From positions 416,001-480,000 of the forward strand of contig CAVRCI010000013.1 of NCBI GenBank assembly GCA_963719495.1: DNA of 64,000 nt, written 5' to 3'. This document shows, piece by piece, positions 2,652 to 43,809 of the stretch. Each line of letters opens with the position of its first letter. Position 1 is the first letter of the stretch. Source of the stretch: an uncultured Verrucomicrobiae bacterium. GTDB lineage: Bacteria > Verrucomicrobiota > Verrucomicrobiia > Chthoniobacterales > JAATET01. The notes under the pieces are model-generated. The model ran no database searches. It saw only the letters and a list, made by a program, of their open reading frames with translations, and was not told the DNA's origin. Made by a program: the position numbers and the translations under genes.

Positions 2652-5015
2652 TCACTTCCCCCCAACGCTCCGACCCACCGGACCACCCACCGGCACCGAA
2701 GGCGCCCACTTCAACCAAGCCCCCTTCGGCTTCTCGTAAAGCGGAAACCGGCTCCCGTCCCCCACGCGCTCGCCGAGATCCGCGTCGTCCGGCGTGGCGA
2801 ACGCGATGCCGCCCAACGTGAGCGTCGTCAGCGGCGTCGGCTCGACCTTCAAAAACAAAAACCCAAGCGACGCCTTGAGACCGCCCACGTCCCAGAACCG
2901 CGTATTCGTCCGCACGAGCGGTGCGTATCGCGGCTCGATCTCCACCACGAGATCCACCTTCCCCGCCTCCGGCGACAACGCCTTCCGCAGCACCTTCCCG
3001 ACCGTCACCCCGCGGTAAAACACCGGCGCGTTCACGCCGATCTTCGTCGTCTCCGCCGCCAACACGACCTGCAAGCCAGACTCGACGACGGCCTGCAAGT
3101 CCTCGGCCGCCTCCTCGGCGACCTCCGTCGATTGCGCGACGAATTCCTCCGCCGGCTCGTCGCCCGTCCCCGGCACGCAATCGATGTAAACCCCGCTCAC
3201 CAAAGTCTCCAACCCCGTCACCCCCTCGAGCGACACCTCCGGTCGAACCATCGTGAATACGCTCCCCCTCCGCCGCAGCATCGGATACCCGGCCTCGAAC
3301 CGCGCCACGACGCGCACCCCGTCCTCCTCGACCGTCACCGATTCCACCAAACCCACCGGCAACCCGCGGAACCGCATTTGAGTCCGGCCCGCGACCAATC
3401 CCTGACCATCCGCAAACGAGATCCGAATCGGCGGCGACACCGCCCGCGCCGCCGCCTCCGTCTCGAACAACGAATACGCCGCGCCGTCCGCCGCCGACCC
3501 CGCCGCTTCACCGAAGACGTCGAACTCCACCCCACCTTGCAACAGCGAATCCAGCCCATCGACCGCCAGCTGTAGTCCCCCCGGCCCCACGCCCACCGTG
3601 ATCGCCGACGAAGCCCAGAAGCGCGCATTTTCCCGCACCGTCGACGCGGAGTCCGGCTCGATCACGATCTTCAGCTCCGCCGTCCCGTTCTCCCCGATTC
3701 CCTTGCCGATCACCCGACCGACCACGACGCCCCGCCGCATCACCGGAGCCCCCACCCCAAGCGCCCCGATCCGCCGCGCCGCCACCGTGATCGCCAACCC
3801 CTGATCGCTCGTCGGCAGCGTCAGCCAATCCGTGCCCGGCGTCCGCCCCTCGAAGGTCTCCCCCATCACCGTCCCGTCGCCCGGCTCGCAGGCGATGTAG
3901 TTTCCGTTGAGCAGCGTATCCAGCCCCGACACGCCCTCGAGCGTCACCCGCGCCCGCACCAGCGTGAACCCCGCCCCGTCGCTACGAAACCGGTCGAACT
4001 CCGGCTCCAGGTGCGCGACCACGTCGACCTTGCCACTTTCGAGATTCAACTCCGCCGAGGCCACGATCCCGATCGTGACGTCGAGGTAACGCAATTCCGT
4101 CTCGCCCGCGACCAAGCCCAGACCACTGTCGAACGTGATGTGGATCGGCGGCGACGTCGCTCGTGCCGCCGCCTCGGTGGCGAACAGTTGGAACTCCGCC
4201 TCGTCCTCGACCGGCTCACCCCGGTCGCCGAAGGAATCGAACTCGATCCCGCCCTGCACCAACGCCGCCACGCTCGGCACCGCCAGACTCACGCCGGACG
4301 CACCCGTCTTGAGCGACGCCAACGGCATCTGCCAGAACCGCGAATTCTTCCCCACCAGATCGCTGAATTCTTCCCCCACCACGACCTCGAGCAGCGGATC
4401 CCCCGCCTCGTCCAGCTTCGCCTCGTTCACCGCGCCCACCGCCACCCCGCGGTGGAAGACCGGCGCGCCCCGCACGATCCGGGGCATCGTTTGCGGCCGC
4501 AGACTCAGCACCACCGACGGCGCTTCCAACGGCTCGATCGGCATCTGACTCAATCCCTCGAAATGCGTCGCCCGTTCGCCGCCCCCGAGCCGGGCTTGCA
4601 GAGAATTCCCCTGGATGATCGATTCCAACCCCGACAATTGCACCAACGACACGACCGGTTTATCGATCCAGAAGATCGTCTTCTCCCGCGCAAGCTCCTC
4701 CGCAAACGCCTGCAGCAGCACCGTCACCCGCACCCCCCCGAGGTTCGGCCGCAACTCGACCTTCGTCACCTTCCCGGCCTCCGCCCCCCGGTAGAGCAGC
4801 ACCGTCTTCCCCGCCTGCAGCCCCGGCGCCGCGTCGAAATCGATCTCGATCTCCGGCCCCCGCGACCTCCAATTCGAAAAAAACAGCCAGCCCGCCGCCG
4901 TGATCGCGAGCACCGGAAAGATCCACGCCCCCGAGACCCGCCAACGCCCCCCGCGCACGACCTCGCCGTGATCCTCCCGTTCCGGGCCGGGCGTGGGTTC
5001 GTCGGAGTTCGTCAT
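2652..5015 (-). CDS. LetB/PqiB-family multi-MCE (MlaD) intermembrane lipid transport protein, six MCE repeats
   Basis: N-terminal TM (WIFPVLAITAAGWLFF) then six repeats of the ...GL/GAP..YRG..VG.V pattern. ATG 5015 overlaps the pqiA stop (ATGA). Confidence 0.9.
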   Translation of the reverse strand: MTNSDEPTPGPEREDHGEVVRGGRWRVSGAWIFPVLAITAAGWLFFSNWRSRGPEIEIDFDAAPGLQAGKTVLLYRGAEAGKVTKVELRPNLGGVRVTVLLQAFAEELAREKTIFWIDKPVVSLVQLSGLESIIQGNSLQARLGGGERATHFEGLSQMPIEPLEAPSVVLSLRPQTMPRIVRGAPVFHRGVAVGAVNEAKLDEAGDPLLEVVVGEEFSDLVGKNSRFWQMPLASLKTGASGVSLAVPSVAALVQGGIEFDSFGDRGEPVEDEAEFQLFATEAAARATSPPIHITFDSGLGLVAGETELRYLDVTIGIVASAELNLESGKVDVVAHLEPEFDRFRSDGAGFTLVRARVTLEGVSGLDTLLNGNYIACEPGDGTVMGETFEGRTPGTDWLTLPTSDQGLAITVAARRIGALGVGAPVMRRGVVVGRVIGKGIGENGTAELKIVIEPDSASTVRENARFWASSAITVGVGPGGLQLAVDGLDSLLQGGVEFDVFGEAAGSAADGAAYSLFETEAAARAVSPPIRISFADGQGLVAGRTQMRFRGLPVGLVESVTVEEDGVRVVARFEAGYPMLRRRGSVFTMVRPEVSLEGVTGLETLVSGVYIDCVPGTGDEPAEEFVAQSTEVAEEAAEDLQAVVESGLQVVLAAETTKIGVNAPVFYRGVTVGKVLRKALSPEAGKVDLVVEIEPRYAPLVRTNTRFWDVGGLKASLGFLFLKVEPTPLTTLTLGGIAFATPDDADLGERVGDGSRFPLYEKPKGAWLKWAPSVPVGGPVGRSVGGK

Positions 5016-17165: not shown

Positions 17166-17444
17166 ATGGCCATAACATCCATCAAGAGCACTTACTCGCT
17201 CGACATCGACACGACCTCCGCCATTGAAATGCTGGCAAAACGCTGGAGCATTCCCAAATCGCAGGTCATCCGACGGGCAATCCGAGCCCAAGCGCAAGCC
17301 GAGTCGGATTGGGCTCCACCGACCCCCGTATCCCCCGAGGCCGCGGACCGGCTGGCGGCGTTCCAAGCGTTGAGTCGCTCGACCCGCGAGCGCGGAGTCG
17401 ATTTCCAACGGTGGGGACAGGACATCCTCGCAACCCGGCGATGA
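17166..17444 (+). CDS. vapB: Ribbon-helix-helix (CopG-like) antitoxin
   Basis: KSTYSLD..T...IEMLAKRWSIPKSQVIRRAI; ATGA overlap with the PIN gene. Confidence 0.75.
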   Translation: MAITSIKSTYSLDIDTTSAIEMLAKRWSIPKSQVIRRAIRAQAQAESDWAPPTPVSPEAADRLAAFQALSRSTRERGVDFQRWGQDILATRR

Positions 17445-17839
17445 TCTCACTCGACGCGAACTACCTCGTTGCCGCGATCGATCCAGCAACGTCTCAGCAT
17501 TTGGAAGTCATCGCCCTGCTTGCAGCTGGCGAAATGTTCTCGATGTCGGCGGTGGCCTGGGCCGAATTCCGATGTGGTAGTCAGGAGGGACTCACCTCCG
17601 AGGAAGAGGCGGCGGCCCACGCGATGCTGACTTCCATCGAGCCACTGACTACCGACGACGCCGAGACCGGAGCAGAACTTTTCAACGCAACCGGACGTCG
17701 GCAACGCTCACTCGCGGATTGTCTTGTCGCTGCCACCGCCATGCGTCTGGATCTCGCGTTGGCGACGTTCAATCAGCAGGATTTTTCGAGATTCACAACC
17801 CATGGTCTAGTGATCCACGAGCCGAGCGGAAAATTTTGA
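17441..17839 (+). CDS. vapC: PIN-domain VapC toxin
   Basis: ISLDANYL, WAEF, SLADCLVAATA, LATFNQQDF. Confidence 0.9.
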   Translation: MISLDANYLVAAIDPATSQHLEVIALLAAGEMFSMSAVAWAEFRCGSQEGLTSEEEAAAHAMLTSIEPLTTDDAETGAELFNATGRRQRSLADCLVAATAMRLDLALATFNQQDFSRFTTHGLVIHEPSGKF

Positions 17840-18207: not shown

Positions 18208-19188
18208 TTAGGTCGAGAACCCGGACGGCCCGCGCGTTTGGCGGCGGCGGCGCATCCAGATCATCAAGCCAAGAGAACCGGAGATGACAAACGCGATCGT
18301 CGCCGGCTCGGGAACCGCGGTGAACGTGTGCAACCCGGACGTGAAAAACAAATCGTCGACCTTGCCATCGAAGGAGCTGTTATACGGGAAAACGGAACGT
18401 TCTCCCACGTGGAGCTTCCGCCGAGCATTCGAGATTGCGATGCTCTCGGAGAAAGCAACGGTGGCTAGCTTGGAGCCGTTCAAATAGAGCGTCGCCAGAT
18501 TTTCACCGGGGTTTTCCGCGTAGTCGTAGGCAAACCCGAAGTGATTCCATTCGCCGACGTTGATGGTTCCGACCGGAAGGAAGGCCGAATAGCGGGTCTC
18601 GTTGCCCTCGTTGGAGGCGCTATTGCCCCCGACTTGGATCTCGACCCGCCACTGGTAGGCATTTCCATTCCCGGCGTTCAGCGTTTTCAACAGCCCCAGA
18701 CCAAACGAGTATCCAGCCGAATACGTGCCGCGATCCATCACGACGACGCGCTGCTCGGCGGGATCGATGAGGTTAAAATTGATCCAGGCTCCGCCAGTGA
18801 AATCTTCACCGACGAGATCAAGGGCGTCGTCCGAGGTGTCGTCTGCGTTCCAATAAACGGACGAATTGTCGACCGCGCTCGATCCGCCGGTGGGCAGGTT
18901 CACTGAGTTTCCGTATCCCGAAGTGCCCGGTCGGTCGACCCCGGGAACGAAGCTTGGAGAATTCCCGGCGGACCCGGTCGCGAGTTCGCCGTCGTAGGTT
19001 GCTCCCGAGGCGGCCGAGTTGGCGACGGTCTCACCGGAGGTCTCGTCGAACTTCCAATTCAATTTATCCACCGCGATGCTGTCCGAGACGGGGCGCGCCA
19101 AATTGATGGCGGCGGCGCGGCAGACCAGAGGGTTCGTCAGCAAAGAAAAAGCCGCGACGGCGGAGAAGATGGTCGACTTGGGGTTCAT
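18208..19188 (-). CDS. LamG-like (concanavalin fold) PEP-CTERM surface protein
   Basis: Signal peptide; WKFDETSG, WNHFGFAYD, TLYLNG, FDGKVDDL; VPEP + TM + RRRR. Confidence 0.9.
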   Translation of the reverse strand: MNPKSTIFSAVAAFSLLTNPLVCRAAAINLARPVSDSIAVDKLNWKFDETSGETVANSAASGATYDGELATGSAGNSPSFVPGVDRPGTSGYGNSVNLPTGGSSAVDNSSVYWNADDTSDDALDLVGEDFTGGAWINFNLIDPAEQRVVVMDRGTYSAGYSFGLGLLKTLNAGNGNAYQWRVEIQVGGNSASNEGNETRYSAFLPVGTINVGEWNHFGFAYDYAENPGENLATLYLNGSKLATVAFSESIAISNARRKLHVGERSVFPYNSSFDGKVDDLFFTSGLHTFTAVPEPATIAFVISGSLGLMIWMRRRRQTRGPSGFST

Positions 19189-19527: not shown

Positions 19528-20478
19528 TCACGATTCAATCTCGCGCTTTTTCCGCCGAGCTTGCAGGAGGTTGCGCACCGTCCGCCACGACCCCATTTTC
19601 AACTCCCGCGCGATCCAGTCGATCGTCATCGGCGTCTGCGCTCGAAGAACCTCGGCAATCCCTGCTTTGACCGGATGCCCCTTGTTCTCCCGATTCAAAC
19701 GGGCCTCGTCCCAACCCACTTTAGCGAGCTCGCCATCGATGAGAGTCTTTGCGCGAGCCTCATCGCTTTCACGACGCTCGCTAGCCACGTGATTCCGAGC
19801 CGACGGCTTCGCTCGGGAGATCCATTCATCGATTCGATCCCGAAAATCCTCCGCCCCGTAGCGCCATCCAGTCCGAATCTGACGCCATTCGCTCGACTCT
19901 CCATCCGCGCGCCTTGCCTCAATTCGAGCAGAAAACTCCCGCCGCCCCTGGCGATCATCTTTCTCAATTCCGTGCTCGCCGAGCAGACGCGTCACCCTCA
20001 ACCACGTCGGTCGCTGGTCAGGATTTGCCAAATACTTCGGAAAACTGCTCCACGAATACGAATCCAACCGCTCGTCATCGGGGATTAGCCCCGCACGATC
20101 TGGATTGAGATGCACGTAGTCGCAGACCACTCGTAGATAATGATCACTGCTTTCATCGACCAGGATCGATTTATACCTCCCGGCAAACAAATGCCCGCTC
20201 TGCTTGTGGCGAACGTTGAATCGGATGGTGTAGGTGCCCAGTAGCCACTTCATCCCAAGCACGAGATTCGGCTGTGGTGTCTCAACGACCAAATGAAAAT
20301 GATTCTGCATCAGGCAGTAGGCATCGACGATCCAGCCACACTTCTTGCAAGTCGTCGCCAGCGTCTCAATGAACTGCTCGCGATCCTTCTCATCCCAAAA
20401 AGTACTCTCCCTTCGATCTCCGCGGCTCATCAAATGATACCGCGCACCTCCGTATTCAACCCGCAATGGTCTCGCCAT
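19528..20478 (-). mobile_element. REP-associated tyrosine transposase (RAYT/TnpA-REP, IS200-like HUH) with C-terminal HTH
   Basis: MARPLRVEY.GARYHLMSRG, AYCLMQNHFHL (HUH), GHLFAGRYKS, YVHLNP, YSWSS. Flanked by inverted 21-bp repeats. Confidence 0.93.
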
Positions 20479-20508
20479 TCCCGATCATTTCCCACCGGAG
20501 TCAGACCT

Positions 20509-20555
20509 GTCAATAGTATGGACTGACCCCTCTAACTCTAACCTCTAACTGACCC
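20509..20555 (+). repeat. RAYT repeat copy D, inverted relative to C, with stuttered end
   Basis: gtcaatagtatggactgacccc followed by tctaactctaacctctaactgacccc. Confidence 0.9.
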
Positions 20556-20716
20556 CTCTACTCTCACATCTCCCCCCTGTCTGCCGGCACCCCAAAATGA
20601 GAACTGCTGCGTTGGCGCGGGACTTGAGTCGGATTACGCACCGAGGAAAGCGCCGTTGCAGGCTCGGAATCACGTTGCGAGTTGCGTAAAACAAAACTTT
20701 GCGATACGGTTTGGAG

Positions 20717-22165
20717 ATGGCTCGAGCTATCGCTATCGTTCTCGGGTTGCTCGTCGTTCCGCTGACAGCTCTGGACGCGATCTCCCAAACTGTTCCGGGC
20801 GTCTACGTGACGGAGGTCGGTCCCCCGCCGTCGGTCGTCGGATTGTCGACGTCGCAGACCGCCATCGTCGGGCGCTTCGCGAAGGGTCCCGTGAACGTAT
20901 CCGTAAACGTGACTTCAGCTGAGTTTCTGACGGAATTTGGTTCGGGCGGGAGTGCGGGCGAGTTGGCGACGTATCCGGCAGAGGTGCAGGCTAGGCTCTA
21001 TTTTGCCAACGGCGGGAGCGAACTTCAGGTCGTCCGGCTGCCTCCCAAGATGCCGCTGCCGGAAGCGCTGCTGGGCGAGGCGGAGAAGTTGACCGGACTC
21101 TACGCGCTGGAGCCGAGCAGTGATTTGCGGATCTTGCTGGCACCCGAGATCAGCACTCTTGGCGCGGTAAATTTTGCGACGGTGTTCCCGATTTACCTCC
21201 AGTTTGCCACGGAGCGCGGTGTGTTTTTCATCGTGGACCCGCCACCGACGGCGACCACGGTGGACGCGGCGATCGACTGGGCGAGCGCCTCGATCCCGGT
21301 CGATGCTGCGGCGTGTGCGGCGTATTTCCCATCTCTGTTGGTGACCTTTCCGGGACTGGACGTGCCGCACATCACCGCGCCAACGAGCGGGTCGATGGCC
21401 GGGATTTTTGTGACCAACGACGCGAACGTCGGCATCTGGAACCAACCGGCGGGAACGTCGCTGTCAACGAATGCGCTGGGAGTGACACTGACCTTGGACG
21501 CGGCAGACGGGGCGAGATTGAACGACGGGGCGATCAATTGGATCCGAGACATCGAGGGATTTGGGGTCGTCCCGTGGGGTTCCCGCACGCTGGACCGGTC
21601 GAATCTCGCAAACCGCGAAATCGGCGCCGTCCGTTTCCTGGGCTGGACGATGGCTTCGATCCAACGCTCTTTGGCCTTTGCCGCTTACGAAGAAAACGAT
21701 GTTGCGCTCTGGCTCGATATCCGCAGTTCGGTAAGCGCCTTCTTCAACGATCTCTGGCAGTCCGGAGCCTTGGAGGGGGAGACGGCGGAAGAATCCTACA
21801 CCGTGACCTGCGACGCAACCACAACGTCTCCGGCTGACGTCGCAGCCCACCGCGTGAATCTCGACTACGAACTCCAGTTGGACGGCCCGGTGAGCCGATC
21901 GCTGACGGCGATGACGCTGGACCCCGACGCGCCGGTGCCGCGACCGCAGGTTTATCTGATCGGATTCCCGTCGGTGCCTCGGCTGACCTTCGACACGGTG
22001 CCGGGATTTAAATACACGGTCGAAACCGACGAGGGGATGTCGACCGAAGAATGGGAACCCCTCGCCCCCGTCTTCTCCGGGTATGACGGCTGGCGGCACG
22101 TAACCATCCCCGCATTGGCAACGGCGGAGTTCTACCGAGTGCAAGTCGCAACTGGGAATCCCTGA
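20717..22165 (+). CDS. Contractile phage-tail/eCIS sheath homologue with signal peptide and extra C-terminal domain
   Basis: PGVYVTE, TAIVG..KGPVN, YFANGG..VVR, IVDPP, AAYFP, SGSMAG..ND..GIW..PAG, LN..IN.IR, WGSRTL, LW..IR, LWQSGALEG, Y.VTCD. Confidence 0.88.
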   Translation: MARAIAIVLGLLVVPLTALDAISQTVPGVYVTEVGPPPSVVGLSTSQTAIVGRFAKGPVNVSVNVTSAEFLTEFGSGGSAGELATYPAEVQARLYFANGGSELQVVRLPPKMPLPEALLGEAEKLTGLYALEPSSDLRILLAPEISTLGAVNFATVFPIYLQFATERGVFFIVDPPPTATTVDAAIDWASASIPVDAAACAAYFPSLLVTFPGLDVPHITAPTSGSMAGIFVTNDANVGIWNQPAGTSLSTNALGVTLTLDAADGARLNDGAINWIRDIEGFGVVPWGSRTLDRSNLANREIGAVRFLGWTMASIQRSLAFAAYEENDVALWLDIRSSVSAFFNDLWQSGALEGETAEESYTVTCDATTTSPADVAAHRVNLDYELQLDGPVSRSLTAMTLDPDAPVPRPQVYLIGFPSVPRLTFDTVPGFKYTVETDEGMSTEEWEPLAPVFSGYDGWRHVTIPALATAEFYRVQVATGNP

Positions 22166-22471
22166 CGACAAAATGCCATCACTCCGACGACCAGCGGAGC
22201 GATGACGGATTGTGCCGTCGGAGTACTGGGAATACTTAGTACTGGGACTACTGGGGGTGAGTGTGCAAAAGCAAATTTTTAGTTCTCAACATCTACGCTA
22301 CGCACCCACTTGACGAATTCTTCCGGCACCTTGCGCAATCTCGTCACTGCATCCGAAATTCCATGCTGCTGTCCGGCGTTTGCCGCGCTTTTCATTTCCA
22401 TTCGATCGCGATCCACCCGGCTAATGGGAAGCGCGCCTGTATCCCGAAGAGATTCTATCCTGTCACGCTGA

Positions 22472-22571
22472 TACAACCGTCTTCGGGGTTGGTTCTTTCG
22501 TTGGCTCCCATCCCAGGGTAGCCCGCGCGACGGGCAACCCTGAGCTGAACGATTCAACGCCGGTTGCGTTG
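22472..22571 (+). repeat. Degenerate palindromic repeat (caacc..ttcggggttg / cccagggtag..gcaaccctg type)
   Basis: Three adjacent imperfect hairpins. Confidence 0.55.
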
Positions 22572-22655: not shown

Positions 22656-23078
22656 TTACGCCGATAGATGCAGGAAGTTCAGGCCGGGGAAGCGGGTGAA
22701 GTCGGCGTCGAAGGAGACGAGGCGGCAACCGCCGGCGAGGGCGAAGGCGGCGAGGTAAGCGTCCGTCCAGAGGCGATGGGGAAAATGCGGGACGGTTGTC
22801 AGGTTGTAGAATTGGTTTTGAAGACCAGTGGGTTCATCCAGATAGAGATGATGGGGATGTTTCAAAAATTGGTGATAGATGTCCCAAATTTCCGGGTTGG
22901 ATAGCGGGCCATGTAAGACTCCCGGCACGGTGCCGATGCGCAGGAAACCCATCATGGTCACACGACAAAACGCCTTTTTGGTTCCCGGATTTTTCTCCCA
23001 ATAATCCACAGCGCCCGCGTGGAGGCTGTGATTTTCATCAATAACGGCGAGCCAAAGGTTGATGTCCGGCAAATCCAT
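22656..23078 (-). CDS. vapC: PIN-domain VapC toxin
   Basis: LPDINLWLA, WTDAYLAAFA, LVSFDADF.RFPGL. Confidence 0.92.
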   Translation of the reverse strand: MDLPDINLWLAVIDENHSLHAGAVDYWEKNPGTKKAFCRVTMMGFLRIGTVPGVLHGPLSNPEIWDIYHQFLKHPHHLYLDEPTGLQNQFYNLTTVPHFPHRLWTDAYLAAFALAGGCRLVSFDADFTRFPGLNFLHLSA

Positions 23079-23387
23079 TCAGGATTTCCTTTGGGATTCT
23101 TCGATCACCCGCCGATGTCCGGCGAGGTCTTCTTCCTCGAGCATGGCGAAGAGTTCCGCATTCGTCCGATAAGGAGTCGGAGGCGCGCCGGGTACGCGCT
23201 CAAAGGCTACGGGGAGCGGATATGGATTTTCAGGCGGAATCGCCCTTGCTGGCTGGTCCAGGGAACCCCGCAAACCGGCTTCGATGTAGGTCGCAAAAAG
23301 GTCTTTGAGCGTGACCCCTTGCTGGACGGCGCGGGTTTTCACTTTTTTGAAGAGCGCGTCCGGTAAATCAAGGGTCGTTCTCATCAT
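23079..23387 (-). CDS. vapB: VapB antitoxin (RHH)
   Basis: MRTTLDLPDALFKKVKTRA..GVTLKDL; abuts the vapC start. Confidence 0.88.
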   Translation of the reverse strand: MMRTTLDLPDALFKKVKTRAVQQGVTLKDLFATYIEAGLRGSLDQPARAIPPENPYPLPVAFERVPGAPPTPYRTNAELFAMLEEEDLAGHRRVIEESQRKS

Positions 23388-23460
23388 TGAGATGATAGCG
23401 TGAAAATGCGGAAATGGAAAGATGCGTTTACGCGAATAGGAGGCTGGAGCCGCCCGGGAA

Positions 23461-23496
23461 AGGGTCAAGGGCAAGGGTCAGTCCGTTCATTGGTTC
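23461..23496 (+). repeat. RAYT repeat copy E (inverted to B) with stuttered end
   Basis: agggtcaagggcaagggtcagtccgttcattggttc. Confidence 0.88.
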
Positions 23497-23659
23497 GGAA
23501 TCGCCCGCCCGAAGGACCCACAGATTCCGCAGCACGCCCTTTCGAACCAAGCCACGGCTTGACACCAAGGTCTATTTTTCTGTGGGCGTGAGCCGTTGAG
23601 CAGGAGGAGAGCTGGTTTTTGGTAAACAAAAAGAGCGAATGCCGATGGGATGGAGTGGG

Positions 23660-24700
23660 ATGAAAGACACCCCACCATCGAAGAAGCGGCAGAAGTTGGA
23701 AGCACGAGTGGCCACGGCGCAAGAAGTGGCCAGTTTTGACGAGAGTCTAAGGGAGCATCATTATTTGGGGGCGGGGCGGGCGGTGGGTGATAGCCGGCGG
23801 CTGATTGTGGAGATCGAAGGCCGGGCGGTGGCCCTGCTGGTGTGGGGACCGAGCTGCTACGCGCTCAAGGATCGGGATCTGTGGATTGGCTGGAGCGCGC
23901 CGCAGCGCGTGGAACGGCTCAAGTTGATCGTGCAGAACCGCCGCTTTCTGGTGCTCGCGGCCAAGGGCTAGGAGCCCAATCTGGCCAGCGCGGCGATGGG
24001 AGCGGCGTTGCGGGCCTTGCCAGGACAATGGCTGGAGCGCTTTGGCTACCGGCCACTTTTGGCGGAAAGTTTCACCGACCCGGAGAGCCACGCGGGCACC
24101 TGTTATCGTGGCCAGCAACTGGGCGGCGGTGGGAATGAGGGAGGGATACAGTCGGCACCGGGCGGATTTTTACATCCCCAACGAACGGCCCAAGAAATTC
24201 TGGCTGCGAGAGTTGGAGGTCGGTGACCGCGCGCGGCTGCGGGCCTGCGAGTTGCCGCCCGAGTGCCGGGGTGCGCTCATCGCCGCGCCGGGTGGACTGA
24301 CCCTCGCCCAGCACGAAGACGGCTCCCCCCAAGCCATCGCCGTCTACGACCAGAAAGAAGGCACCCAGCGCTGCGAGCAAAGCGCCGCCCTGGCCCTGCT
24401 CGAAAGCCTGCCCGCCTTGGGCGGAAAAATCGTCACCGCCGACCCCCTTCACTGCCAGAAGAAAACCGCTCGGGCCATCGTGGAAAAAAGCGGCGACTAC
24501 CTCTTCGGCATCGAAGGCAATCAACCCACCCTGCTGGCCCACGCCGAAGGCTTCGACGCCTTGGAGAGCCCCCCCTTTTAACCCACACCCAAGCCGGACG
24601 CGGCCGCATCGAAGTGCGTTCCCTCCACGCCTTCACCTTCGAAGCCACCACCGCCGACTTCCCCTTCGCCCCCACCCTCATTGTCCTGCGCTCCGAGCGA
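23660..24700 (+). pseudogene. Decayed DUF4338-ISAs1 family transposase
   Basis: HHYLG..RD.WIGW..NRRFL (DUF4338), TAG at 23969, frameshift ~24110, apparent internal deletion ~24290, then IVTADPLHCQKKTA..GDY..GNQPTL and GRIEVR (ISAs1 DDE). Confidence 0.85.
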
Positions 24701-41618: not shown

Positions 41619-41784
41619 CCTGTCACTAATGAACCACGGCGGCCGCCGAGACGCAAGGTCACCAGGACGGGGTCGCTTGGAGTCTTACCCTCAAAAGAAT
41701 CGTGAGACGGGATTTACACGAGTAACGGGATGATCGGGGGATGATCGGGTATGACCTACCAGGCGGCGATCGGTCACCCTGTCA

Positions 41785-42287
41785 GTGAGCGGGGGCTGGG
41801 TGAGCGTGGGATGCGATCACGACACCTCCGAATTTGCCGCGGAAAGCATCCGGCGTTGGTGGCGCAAGATGGGCTCGGCCCGATATCCCGCAGCCCACCG
41901 TCTCCTCATCACCGCCGACGGAGGGGGCGGCAAAAGTTTCCGATGCCACCTTTGGAAGTGGTGCCTGGCGCGGTTGAGCGCGGAGATCGGAGTGGAGATC
42001 AGCGTCTACCACTTCCCTCCGGCCACCAGCAAGTGGAACAAGATCGAGCATCGGCCTTTCTGTCACATCACCCAGAACTGGCGGGGCAAAGCCCTCGTCA
42101 GCCACGAAGTCGTCGTCGAACTCATTGCTGCGAAACCACCCGGGCTGGCCTCGAAGTCAGGGCCGAGGCCGATCAATCGCACTATCAAACCAAGCTCAAA
42201 CCCACCCCCGAGCAAATGGCCTCCATCCGCATGACCCGCAATGATTTTCACGGGGAATGGTATTACACCATCAGCCCTCCACCCTGA
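41785..42287 (+). pseudogene. ISAzo13-family transposase 3' remnant (frameshifted)
   Basis: GWVSVG.DHDT.EFA..SIRRWW, LLITADGGG, HFPP.TSKWNKIEHR, NWRGK, then in another frame FHGEWYYTI. Confidence 0.88.
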
Positions 42288-42302
42288 CCCAAGGTGCGCC
42301 GA

Positions 42303-43809
42303 CAACGGTGTTGAACGCACTGAGGAAGACGAGCCCGTAGCGGGGCAATGGAGAAAGGAGGAAGGCGCAGGTGGGGTCGAGTATCCGGGGGTTCCGAAAT
42401 GATTCGCTGGGCGCGCGGAGAAGAAAGAGGTGGCAAAGAGAAAGAAAGACTTGACATCTGGCAGGGAAGGTGGGCGAAAATTTACATGCCTAATCATATT
42501 GATTCATCCGCTGCCTTCGCCACCTCGCTGATCGACTCGTCCGCCGGAGAGGAGTTCTTCAGGCCGTTGCAAACCATCCTCAGCCAGTGCGAGAAAACGC
42601 GGGCGTGCCCGGACTTGAGCGACGCGGATTGGTTTGGTCTGGGAATCTTGCGAGTCTTCCACGAGGTCAAAAGCGGGAGGGGATTTTTGCAGGAGATCGT
42701 GCCGCATCTGCCGAGTGCCCCCGACTACAATCAATTTTTTGCGACCTTGCGCAGTCCCCGGCGGCTGGCCGCGTGCCAGGAGGCCGACAGCCTGCTGGCG
42801 GGGGAAGCGGCCCGCATTCTCCCGGACGCCTTGGCCGGGGAGCCGGAACTTGAGAAGTTCGACGTTTACGCCGGAGACGGTCACTGGCACGGAGCGGCGG
42901 CCCACGACAAAGCGCCTTTTGCCAACAGCCGCTCCAAGAGCGCTTGCGGACACCTTTTCGCTCAGGACCTGCGTCGTGGCCTGCTGCGCCACATCACCAC
43001 CGCCGACGGGATCGAGCGCGAACACGAACACGACTTGCGTGCGCTCAAACGCCAGACCCGAACGGCCTTGCGCCAAGGTGCGCCCAAAGGCCGCAAAGTC
43101 CTCTACATCTGGGACCGCGCCGGGATCGACTATCAGGCGTGGCAGGACTGGAAGATCAATGGCGGCATCTACTTTGTTTCCCGCGAAAAAACCGGTTCCG
43201 CCTTTGTGGCTCATTCCAACAAGCTCTGGGAGCGCGCCGACCCGCGTAACGCCGGCATCCTCAGTGACGAACGCGGCCACAGCAGCGCCGGCATCCCGCT
43301 TCGCCGCGTCAGTGTCGTCGATGCGCTCACCGGCACGACCTACGTCTTCATCACCAACGAAATGACCCTGCCTCCAGGTCTCATCGCCGAACTCTACCGC
43401 CGCCGCTGGGACATCGAGAAATCCTTCGACACGCTCAAAAACAAATTCGGCGAAACCCGCGCTTGGGCGACCTCTCCCACAGCCAAAACCATGCAAGCGC
43501 TCTTCATCTGCATGACTCATCAACTCCTGCTCGTGCTCAGTCATCACCTCGACCGTGATCACGACATCACACCCAAAGCCGAACTCCAACGCCGCCGCCA
43601 ACGCATCGACTCCCAGATCGCCTTTGCCACCGCCGCCGGTCGGGCTTTCCCTTCCCTGCGCGCAGCCGCCAAGAACCTCTCCCAGTTCACCGTCAAGTTC
43701 CTGCGCTGGCTACGCCATGCTTTGCGATCAAACGCTCTCTGGCATCATCTTCTGGACTCCCTCCGCCTGTCCTATGCCAAACTATAGTTTCATACTTTCA
43801 ACTCCGTTG
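42303..43809 (+). mobile_element. IS4-like insertion sequence; transposase 42486-43787
   Basis: Terminal inverted repeats caacggtgttgaa / ttcaactccgttg; AGDGH, WDRA and LYRRRWDIEKSF..LK (YREK) motifs. Confidence 0.9.

Follow-up and report, generated by a model that had tools for sequence, protein, structure and literature searches.

To our knowledge, all sheaths characterised to date, whether from phage tails, tailocins, extracellular contractile injection systems (eCIS), type VI secretion systems (T6SS) or cytoplasmic and thylakoid-anchored contractile injection systems (CIS), assemble in the cytoplasm around a tube, and we know of no CIS that has a Sec leader on its sheath. Subunits of R-type pyocin and T4 sheaths are knitted into a mesh by their N- and C-terminal arms, and the sheath of the Streptomyces coelicolor CIS, the closest match to the protein discussed here, is assembled in the cytoplasm around its tube. 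Sheath subunits of T4 (gp18) and of the T6SS (VipA/B) also polymerise without a tube, and these polysheaths are the only precedent for a tube-less sheath polymer that we know of. Here we describe a sheath homologue encoded in a 64,000-nucleotide stretch of DNA (the window in what follows) from an uncultured Verrucomicrobiae bacterium (assembly GCA_963719495.1, contig CAVRCI010000013.1, positions 416,001 to 480,000), which has a predicted export signal, is the only sheath gene of its genome and carries an additional domain at its C-terminus. It is likely that a sheath has here left its injection machine and become a tube-less protein that is exported by Sec and works by itself in the envelope or outside the cell; the fold and ancestry, those of a CIS sheath, are known, and it is the setting, exported, solitary and with a new end domain, that would be new. 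The gene and the parts of its product are:

20717..22165, + strand: whole coding sequence of the signal peptide-sheath-FN3 protein, 482 aa plus stop, apparently monocistronic
20717..20785, + strand: predicted signal peptide of the Sec/signal peptidase I type, residues 1-23 (hydropathy, family conservation)
20786..20854, + strand: canonical sheath N-terminal arm, residues 24-46, Q-T-V-PGVYVTEV (alignment to the Streptomyces CIS sheath)
20855..21922, + strand: sheath core, residues 47-402, with the two conserved sheath domains, ending in a degenerate 'PAEF' strand (PHROGs, PDB sequences, AlphaFold2, Foldseek)
21929..22162, + strand: C-terminal FN3-like beta-sandwich, residues 405-482, after a Pro-rich linker (alignments, domain model, VIA-align, Foldseek)

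By profile, sequence and predicted fold the protein is a contractile tail or CIS sheath homologue. It matches phrog_23 'tail sheath' (E 1.5e-34) and phrog_17610 (E 1.1e-27) in PHROGs, and its best match among PDB sequences is the S. coelicolor CIS sheath (8bky, E 2.6e-31, residues 113-381), to residues 5-86 of which the N-terminal arm aligns separately, from PGVYV on. Pvc2 (1.9e-24), Afp2 (5e-15) and Afp2/3 (about 1e-15) are also matched, with the Anabaena CIS sheath, Afp4, the Algoriphagus eCIS sheath and T4 gp18 lower down and the R-pyocin sheath weakly; the 23 distinct PDB sequences at E<=0.1 include two antibody chains, which are chance matches. The original prediction, made from the letters of the window, had described a run of sheath motifs from PGVYVTE to Y.VTCD, and these are indeed found at residues 26-32 and (as YTVTCD) 361-366 of the product that starts at ATG 20717, in agreement with PHROG, PDB and Foldseek. 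The core motifs common to canonical sheaths, FANGG, DPP, A.Y.P, W..P.G, WG.RT and Y..CD, are all retained. A match to sheath profiles, proposed at the same time as a check, was obtained with PHROGs, but both Pfam sheath models stay below their gathering cut-offs on the protein (PF17482 23.4 against 26.9 bits, PF04984 17.0 against 31.4), PF17482 reaching exactly 26.9 bits in a six-frame search of the genome, and the family is therefore poorly annotated. No NCBIfam model matched the protein, its relative P0003 or the end domain at E<=1.

The AlphaFold2 model of the protein (86-sequence alignment) has a mean predicted local distance difference test score (pLDDT) of 92.2 and a predicted TM score of 0.88. 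Residues 1-23 form detached, low-confidence helices (pLDDT 50-54 over 1-20), residues 24-46 are without secondary structure, and the core, with pLDDT mostly 90-98, runs up to a hairpin at 379-399 and is followed by a separate five-strand sandwich at 412-479. Foldseek returned 120 PDB chains at E<=0.001, and all 39 of the 39 listed are sheath chains or belong to sheath-containing tail or CIS entries; the best of these come from the CIS sheath of S. coelicolor (9gts/9gtp), with a TM on target of 0.82-0.87 and an E-value of 3.2e-25, whilst the ESM Atlas gave generic sheath clusters only, at 0.81. The S. coelicolor sheath (8bky, 8bl4, 9gtp, 9gts) thus resembles the protein both in sequence and in fold, yet it starts at PGVY without a leader, being aligned from its residue 5 on, and ends without an additional domain. 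With the eCIS sheaths Pvc2 and Afp2 (6j0b, 6rao) the protein has in common the two-domain core of about 350-390 aa, at Foldseek TM 0.73-0.79, and is set apart from them, together with its family, by the leader, the FN3-like end and a clade of its own. At the site of the terminal 'PAEF' strand, which had been reported as unrecognisable, the protein reads PVS---RSL, with a 3-residue gap, where relatives have [PA][AS]EF; AlphaFold2 nonetheless predicts a strand at 391-399. This strand is not the last element of the protein, as about 78 residues follow it, and the relatives with [PA][AS]EF also carry the end domain. A disulfide was considered as a family-specific mark of export and rejected: Cys200 is present in 12/22 family rows and Cys365 is ancestral (63/66 canonical rows).

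A word-indexed search with the protein gave 125 matches, the first 21 of which (P0002-P0022, 350-483 aa) lie between E 1e-297 and 1.5e-66 and are 38-45% identical to it, apart from one at 96% (P0002); the E-value then drops to 2e-40, where canonical sheaths of 500-800 aa begin. When 1.84 billion cluster representatives were scored with the profile of the resulting 22 sequences, 3,945 sheath homologues came out at E<=1e-30, among them 13 full-length representatives of the family (P0002 and P0123-P0134; 397-629 bits, profile covered to at least position 456) and about 7 more members that are fragments, and the next protein below, at 277 bits, is without the end domain. The frames of the 13 full-length representatives are open over 456-482 aa at about 40% identity, the 22 aligned sequences, also at about 40% identity, have 48 invariant columns, and nearly all members retain both the leader and the end domain. 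Members go by the names 'phage tail sheath family protein' or 'hypothetical protein' in public databases, and that of Roseibacillus persicicus has no Pfam match at E<=0.01. The gene had been called an orphan sheath, and this holds for its genomic setting, as neither its genome nor the loci of ten relatives show a machine (see below); it does not hold in the sense of a one-off, as the protein is a member of a conserved family.

Leaders were called with our own heuristic, KD10, the highest mean Kyte-Doolittle hydropathy over any 10-residue N-terminal window, combined with a reading of the (-3,-1) residues. So judged, the protein shows all three parts of a Sec/signal peptidase I leader, with M-A-R as the basic n-region, a 16-residue hydrophobic run as the h-region and a likely cut site between A-I-S and Q that has small residues at -3/-1, and its KD10 is 3.44. 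The Sec-like segment of about 24 residues that had been proposed is kept in relatives: a hydrophobic N-terminus is seen in 19/22 family sequences (KD10 2.1-3.4), the other three (P0017, P0021, P0022) being N-truncated, and in 12/12 further full-length representatives (P0123-P0134). These leaders have little sequence identity to one another but keep their character; in a by-eye reading of the alignment 16 of the 19 have small-x-[A/G] and then Gln, directly before a conserved block LPT.(Q/E)TA..GRFA.GP, and the protein described here fits this with A-I-S|Q. The h-regions of many members are shorter than typical membrane spans. Amongst the 37 next-best canonical sheaths, 28 start with PGV/PGI within about 25 residues and none has a hydrophobic run before this motif, and this, together with its retention in relatives, shows that the leader is no artefact of start-codon choice. 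In the protein itself the PGVY arm stands behind the 23-residue leader and not at the extreme start. Within the family PGVYV is found only in the protein and its 96% relative P0002 and in no other member examined, though P0123 retains a Q-T-A-P-G-V stub straight after its leader.

The extra C-terminal residues noted in the original prediction number about 78 and form, in the AlphaFold2 model, a separate five-strand beta-sandwich that has a pLDDT of 89 when modelled alone. The domain is conserved in 13/13 aligned loci, with G, G and W invariant and a further W and the R of F[YF]R near-invariant, its conserved motifs being G..Y, W, GDG.W and F[YF]R. In a comparison with 48,161 chains VIA-align gave Z scores of up to 7.9 (a tissue-factor FN3 domain, root-mean-square deviation 2.3 over 68 residues), values under 8 being such as may reflect a mere common arrangement; the list is dominated by FN3 domains and includes the Clostridium thermocellum Fn3-like protein 3mpc (Z 6.7). 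The best Foldseek E-value for the domain is 0.011, and it has no match in Pfam or NCBIfam. We would regard it as a generic FN3-like sandwich, a modelled similarity of fold and not an established homology. It had been suggested that the domain resembles a 'FYRV' domain common on secreted proteins of Verrucomicrobia, and this was not borne out by sequence: against 27,017 six-frame open reading frames (ORFs) of the genome the domain profile found only itself (1.4e-26), the next best match having E 0.62, and the motif, with 45 occurrences against 32-45 in shuffles, shows no enrichment. A smaller profile of the domain gave E 0.015 to one 1677-aa ORF, and [FY][FY]R[VLI] occurs in the last 15 residues of 7 of the 6,728 genome ORFs of at least 250 aa, two of which (1819 and 895 aa) have a similar W...FFRLEV ending. 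Outside the window, on contig C4 of the same genome (L002:1504-1581), a 51-aa open frame between other genes holds 26 residues that share 69% identity with the beginning of the end domain; this relic is probably what remains of a second copy.

The genome that carries the gene (4.54 Mb, 16 contigs, 98.62% complete) was searched with seven profiles, the controls for which matched in known genomes, and no match was found to the T4 gp19-type tube (PF06841), the P2-type tube (PF04985), gp25 (PF04965), Baseplate_J (PF04865) or the spike domain Phage_base_V (PF04717), nor to the T6SS sheath VipB (PF05943) or Hcp (PF05638). This gene is the sole sheath gene of the genome. Of the ORFs in the window, 51 were hand-picked for Pfam, from the 176 that are 120 aa or longer together with one of 110 aa, and among these there was likewise no match to a tube, baseplate, spike or capsid family, so that the failure to recognise such genes reported earlier is upheld. 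The flanks of ten family loci (L006-L013, L046, L047) were also scanned with Pfam, using genes called by a simple picker based on GC content at third codon positions, and in none of them is there a tube, baseplate or spike gene; a second neighbourhood look, based on metagenomes, yielded only short contigs (L050-L054). The neighbours differ from locus to locus, and include myo-inositol oxygenase and a solute symporter, a two-component system and a Na/Ca exchanger, DUF1501 and a giant CotH protein, glyoxalase and AdoHcy hydrolase, and threonine synthase and a GHMP kinase (L047). By way of positive control, an eCIS locus in a genome of the same class (L044, genome G267) has sheath, tube, baseplate, Pvc16, AAA ATPase and eCIS_core genes contiguous; the 685-aa sheath at this locus starts M-S-Q-L-T-Y-PGVYV, with PGVY at residue 7, ends PAEFVVIKF and is followed directly by the other components, none of which lies near the genes of the family described here. 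The search for homologues with signal peptide, sheath and end domain that had been recommended at the outset produced a family, with its neighbourhoods, and no complete eCIS locus sharing this architecture; nor did we find a start just before PGVY, or a failing sheath match.

Searched for the tube profile, three genomes with a family member gave nothing in two (the genome above and G327) and in the third, G231, only a truncated stub (L049, G231:C19:5607-5759, profile positions 2-52 of 134), which lies beside a second, canonical sheath. That sheath (L045:5843-8218, - strand) is on another contig from the family gene and is a 791-aa ORF running from PGVYIEEV to PAEFVVIRIRQ, with no leader and no end domain; its flanks hold an FAD oxidoreductase and a TetR/RND efflux operon, and the whole looks like a decaying CIS locus. 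In a metagenome-assembled genome (MAG) of Chthoniobacteraceae (L007) the family gene lies between a lambda-type portal fragment (474-1643; PF05136, 9.5e-15) and a gene for head-closure Hc1/head-tail attachment (3609-3917; PF05354, 1.5e-06), with no capsid gene between the two and four small ORFs without family matches following, and this may be a prophage remnant.

All family members that have a phylum label are from Verrucomicrobiota. A scan of a genome collection gave 19 loci, of which 7 are canonical sheaths of other phyla and 12 are of family level, 11 of these being labelled Verrucomicrobiota (Chthoniobacteraceae/-ales, Limisphaerales, subdivision 3, Verrucomicrobiia) and one only 'bacterium'; further named holders are the cultured Roseibacillus persicicus (P0127) and an Opitutales MAG. 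The family occurs in soils and sediments. In an even sample of the phylum full-length matches (over 400 bits) were found in 3/401 genomes, namely the genome described here (G000), G327 and G231, and in a sample of the class, which overlaps with the first, in 4/401, the same three and G545. Family patterns gave 41 matches in a viral contig collection, none of them a relative. The gene is accessory, gained and lost, and copies in decay are to be found: one at L014:9986-11300 is split over two frames by a frameshift, and another at L054:5935-6288 is cut to about 95 residues.

In a quick IQ-TREE tree (LG+G4) of 20 family proteins, 6 sequences translated from loci and 50 canonical sheaths, with the fragments P0021 and P0022 and also P0071-P0121 left out, the family forms one side of a branch (26 rows of 76) with a support of 99 in the SH-like approximate likelihood ratio test; FastTree, with every second non-family representative left out, groups its 22 rows among 96 with a local support of 99. 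The protein is on a long branch, at 0.71-0.84 changes per column, and a free tree search nests it and its 96% relative inside the family, whereas a tree in which the 24 PGVY-less rows are constrained to form one group gains 21.4 log-likelihood units over the free quick search and is not rejected (approximately unbiased test, p 0.756). On these sequences the simplest history would be one in which a leader and an FN3-like end were added to a canonical sheath, after which the lineage of the protein kept the N-terminal arm and the other branch deleted it. The protein would fit a transitional form, since its lineage alone keeps PGVYV and its relatives have lost the arm. A comparison of 12 family genes by the Nei-Gojobori method gave ratios of non-synonymous to synonymous change (dN/dS) of 0.17-0.28 in the 8 of the 14 listed closest pairs with estimable dS; as dS is saturated at 1.5-2.7 the ratio is only a rough sign, but there are signs that the family is under purifying selection.

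At the locus itself the frame is open on the + strand from a TTG at 20699 to the stop at 22165. The sole further standard in-frame start between ATG 20717 and PGVY is a TTG at codon 11, and this was rejected as the true start; 15 residues would still precede PGVY and the leader conserved in relatives would be cut. A scan of the + strand of 20300-22500 for promoters and terminators gave nothing above shuffle expectation, and a search of sequencing runs listed no RNA run with the gene and one DNA run with 0.25 of the sampled words. Relative to the sheath-homologue gene, the neighbour upstream runs divergently and the one downstream convergently, the features nearby being:

19528..20478, - strand: IS200-like Y1 transposase, divergent neighbour (PF01797, E 1.2e-12)
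22656-23078, - strand: PIN-domain toxin (PF01850, E 2.7e-06)
23079-23474, - strand: small ORF adjoining the PIN toxin, upstream of it, presumed antitoxin from its position only
23639-23971, + strand: fragment of a DruA-like gene, 110-aa ORF (Druantia DruA profile positions 45-140 of 297, E 2.9e-09)

A further PIN toxin lies at 17309-17839, and the two PIN toxins with the DruA fragment make up a patch that resembles a defence or mobile island. Between them, at 18208-19188 (-), is a gene for a secreted 326-aa protein with a PEP-CTERM-like sorting signal at its end (VPEP, a hydrophobic run and RRRR, as read from the translation) and no Pfam match at E<=1e-5. Overall, the ORFs of the window that were scanned against Pfam comprise housekeeping genes (ParA, MnmG, PFK, pyruvate dehydrogenase E1/E2, UvrD), transposases and toxins. 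More mobile DNA is present at 41751-43787 (+), where two transposase ORFs (a Rhodopirellula-type DDE fragment and DDE_Tnp_1) adjoin the pyruvate dehydrogenase genes.

In the reading that we favour the 23-residue leader would route the protein through SecYEG, signal peptidase I would cut before the conserved Gln (Gln24 in this protein), and the mature protein, made up of the sheath core and the C-terminal FN3-like sandwich, would act in the periplasm, in the envelope or outside the cell, without tube, baseplate or spike. Domestication together with an export signal is supported by what can be read from the sequences, although a Sec leader would speak for export across the inner membrane at most; the surface location that had been proposed is not supported by them, and the roles of filament, adhesin or decoy suggested with it are hypothetical. 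The likeliest role would be structural or binding, as a scaffold or coat subunit or as an adhesin, attachment then falling to the FN3-like module. The protein has the N-terminal arm and a degenerate C-terminal arm followed by an extra domain, whereas the relatives have the C-terminal arm motif and no N-terminal arm. By analogy with known sheaths, in which two strands knit the subunits together and the N-terminal arm provides one of them, the protein could still self-associate; the rest of the family has lost this arm. The polysheaths of T4 gp18 and the T6SS differ in that they are cytoplasmic by-products of complete systems, whereas this protein is predicted to be exported and has a C-terminal addition at the subunit-knitting strand; any polymerisation of it is hypothetical. 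We would offer only as a tentative suggestion that the family, perhaps with signal-bearing homologues of other phyla, makes up a new class of exported sheath-derived polymer, a tube-less tubule or coat in the periplasm or outside the cell that is held together by a strand-exchange mesh and lined or anchored by the FN3-like domain, with the protein described here alone in having both knitting arms.

A number of observations weigh against this interpretation. Export, cleavage, expression and location are all predictions, the leader call being our own reading of hydropathy and of the (-3,-1) residues. The appended C-terminal domain and the loss of the N-terminal arm in most members argue against canonical sheath polymerisation, and the structural role is consequently a guess. 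No neighbour gene recurs across the ten scanned loci from which a function might be read, and in the class sample the gene was not found in the two (0/2) other genomes of the genus or in the four (0/4) of the family to which the bacterium belongs. This patchy presence, and flanks that hold the IS200-like transposase on one side and toxin-antitoxin genes on the other, are what one would expect of a mobile gene that can be dispensed with. There are also decayed copies (L014, L054 and the 26-residue relic in the same genome), and, given its long branch and its degenerate PAEF with the 3-residue gap, the protein could be drifting.

Other explanations have been weighed, none of which we consider to be probable. 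The hydrophobic N-terminal segment might be an uncleaved signal anchor, by which the core and the FN3-like domain would be tethered to the inner membrane within the periplasm; with its 16 residues and a KD10 of 3.44 the h-region of the protein is both long and highly hydrophobic, it is a helix in the AlphaFold2 model, and cleavage is itself a prediction from sequence, but small -3/-1 residues and the conserved Gln in 16/19 leaders are the pattern of cleaved Sec leaders and the h-regions of many members are below the typical length of a membrane span, making this form unlikely. We think it distinctly unlikely that the gene is cargo of mobile elements or part of their defence, that is, an exported sheath mimic carried on prophages or islands which hinders contractile phages, tailocins or eCIS particles that arrive from outside, or is of some other use to the element. 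The company that it keeps in some genomes would fit, with an IS200-like transposase, two PIN toxins and a DruA fragment in the window, PIN and DUF4143/AAA_14 genes adjoining the copy in G231, and the portal fragment and Hc1 gene on either side of the L007 copy, as would a distribution in which 4/401 genomes of the class and 0/2 congeners have a full-length member. However, only two of the ten scanned loci (L007, L046) have genes of this sort, the other eight being in housekeeping surroundings, no family member was found in the viral contig collection, and there is no known route by which a free sheath subunit would poison an assembled tail.

It would seem more doubtful still that the gene is a decaying relic of a lost CIS or prophage, without present function and with a leader-like N-terminus that is incidental. 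A sheath gene left alone in its genome, on a long branch, with a degenerate PAEF and with decayed copies elsewhere, is what such a history would leave behind, and a true relic is indeed seen in G231, where a canonical sheath accompanies the truncated tube stub. That relic is unlike the protein, however, as it lacks both leader and end domain and its PGVY and PAEF are canonical. In 13 representatives of the family the frames remain open over 456-482 aa with leader, core motifs and end domain conserved, and dN is far below dS. Least probable of all, and very improbable in our estimation, is a sheath still at work in a cryptic injection system, the tube and baseplate of which diverge too far to be recognised or are encoded elsewhere. 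The core motifs and the PGVYV arm that the protein has kept would suit a working sheath, but seven profile searches of a 98.6%-complete genome were without a match, and the ten family loci have no recognisable tube, baseplate or spike and no recurring neighbour, whereas the canonical sheath at L044 adjoins its tube.

If the favoured reading of a domesticated, exported sheath is true, this would be a clear case of a virus-derived machine part that has been re-used as a free-standing protein of the cell envelope. No description of signal-bearing or solitary sheath homologues was found in the literature searched, PMC13266070 included, most subscription journals being outside the search. The family is almost invisible to Pfam, and because of this and of the names given to its members it is easily miscounted as evidence of a CIS or a prophage. 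Furthermore, the protein with its N-terminal arm kept and the relatives that have lost it form a natural pair bearing on which features a sheath needs for self-assembly, and Roseibacillus persicicus, a holder that is cultured and non-pathogenic, makes this question testable at the bench.

A leader-like N-terminus, by the same heuristic, was also seen in 8 of the 132 listed non-family representatives (P0140, P0155, P0164, P0167, P0176, P0178, P0184 and P0206). These have a leader on a sheath core, as does the protein described here, but none of them has the FN3-like end domain, and some have N-terminal extensions of 100-180 residues. P0140, from an Armatimonadota MAG, has a leader, a linker and then PGVY, and a canonical PAEF end; P0176, from a Bdellovibrio sp., has an N-terminal extension and no PGVY motif; P0155 and P0206 have a lipobox-like Cys and an extension of about 180 residues, again with no PGVY motif; and P0164, P0167, P0178 and P0184 are about 390-400 aa long, with a leader and no PGVY. 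FastTree unites the family with P0164, P0167, P0176, P0155, P0206 and P0027 (28 rows, local support 97) and places P0140 with P0178, and P0184, elsewhere. From these sequences it may be that leaders on sheath homologues arose more than once, and that the Verrucomicrobiota family sits inside a larger exported group.

Finally, the wider set of sheath homologues contains proteins in which the sheath appears to continue into an AAA ATPase. P0196, P0201 and P0211 are candidate fusions of this kind, judged from the C-terminal sequence alone, and in P0032 and P0144 a C-terminal AAA ATPase domain follows the sheath (PF00004, 2e-17 and 3.6e-15), through either a real fusion or a merger of gene calls.

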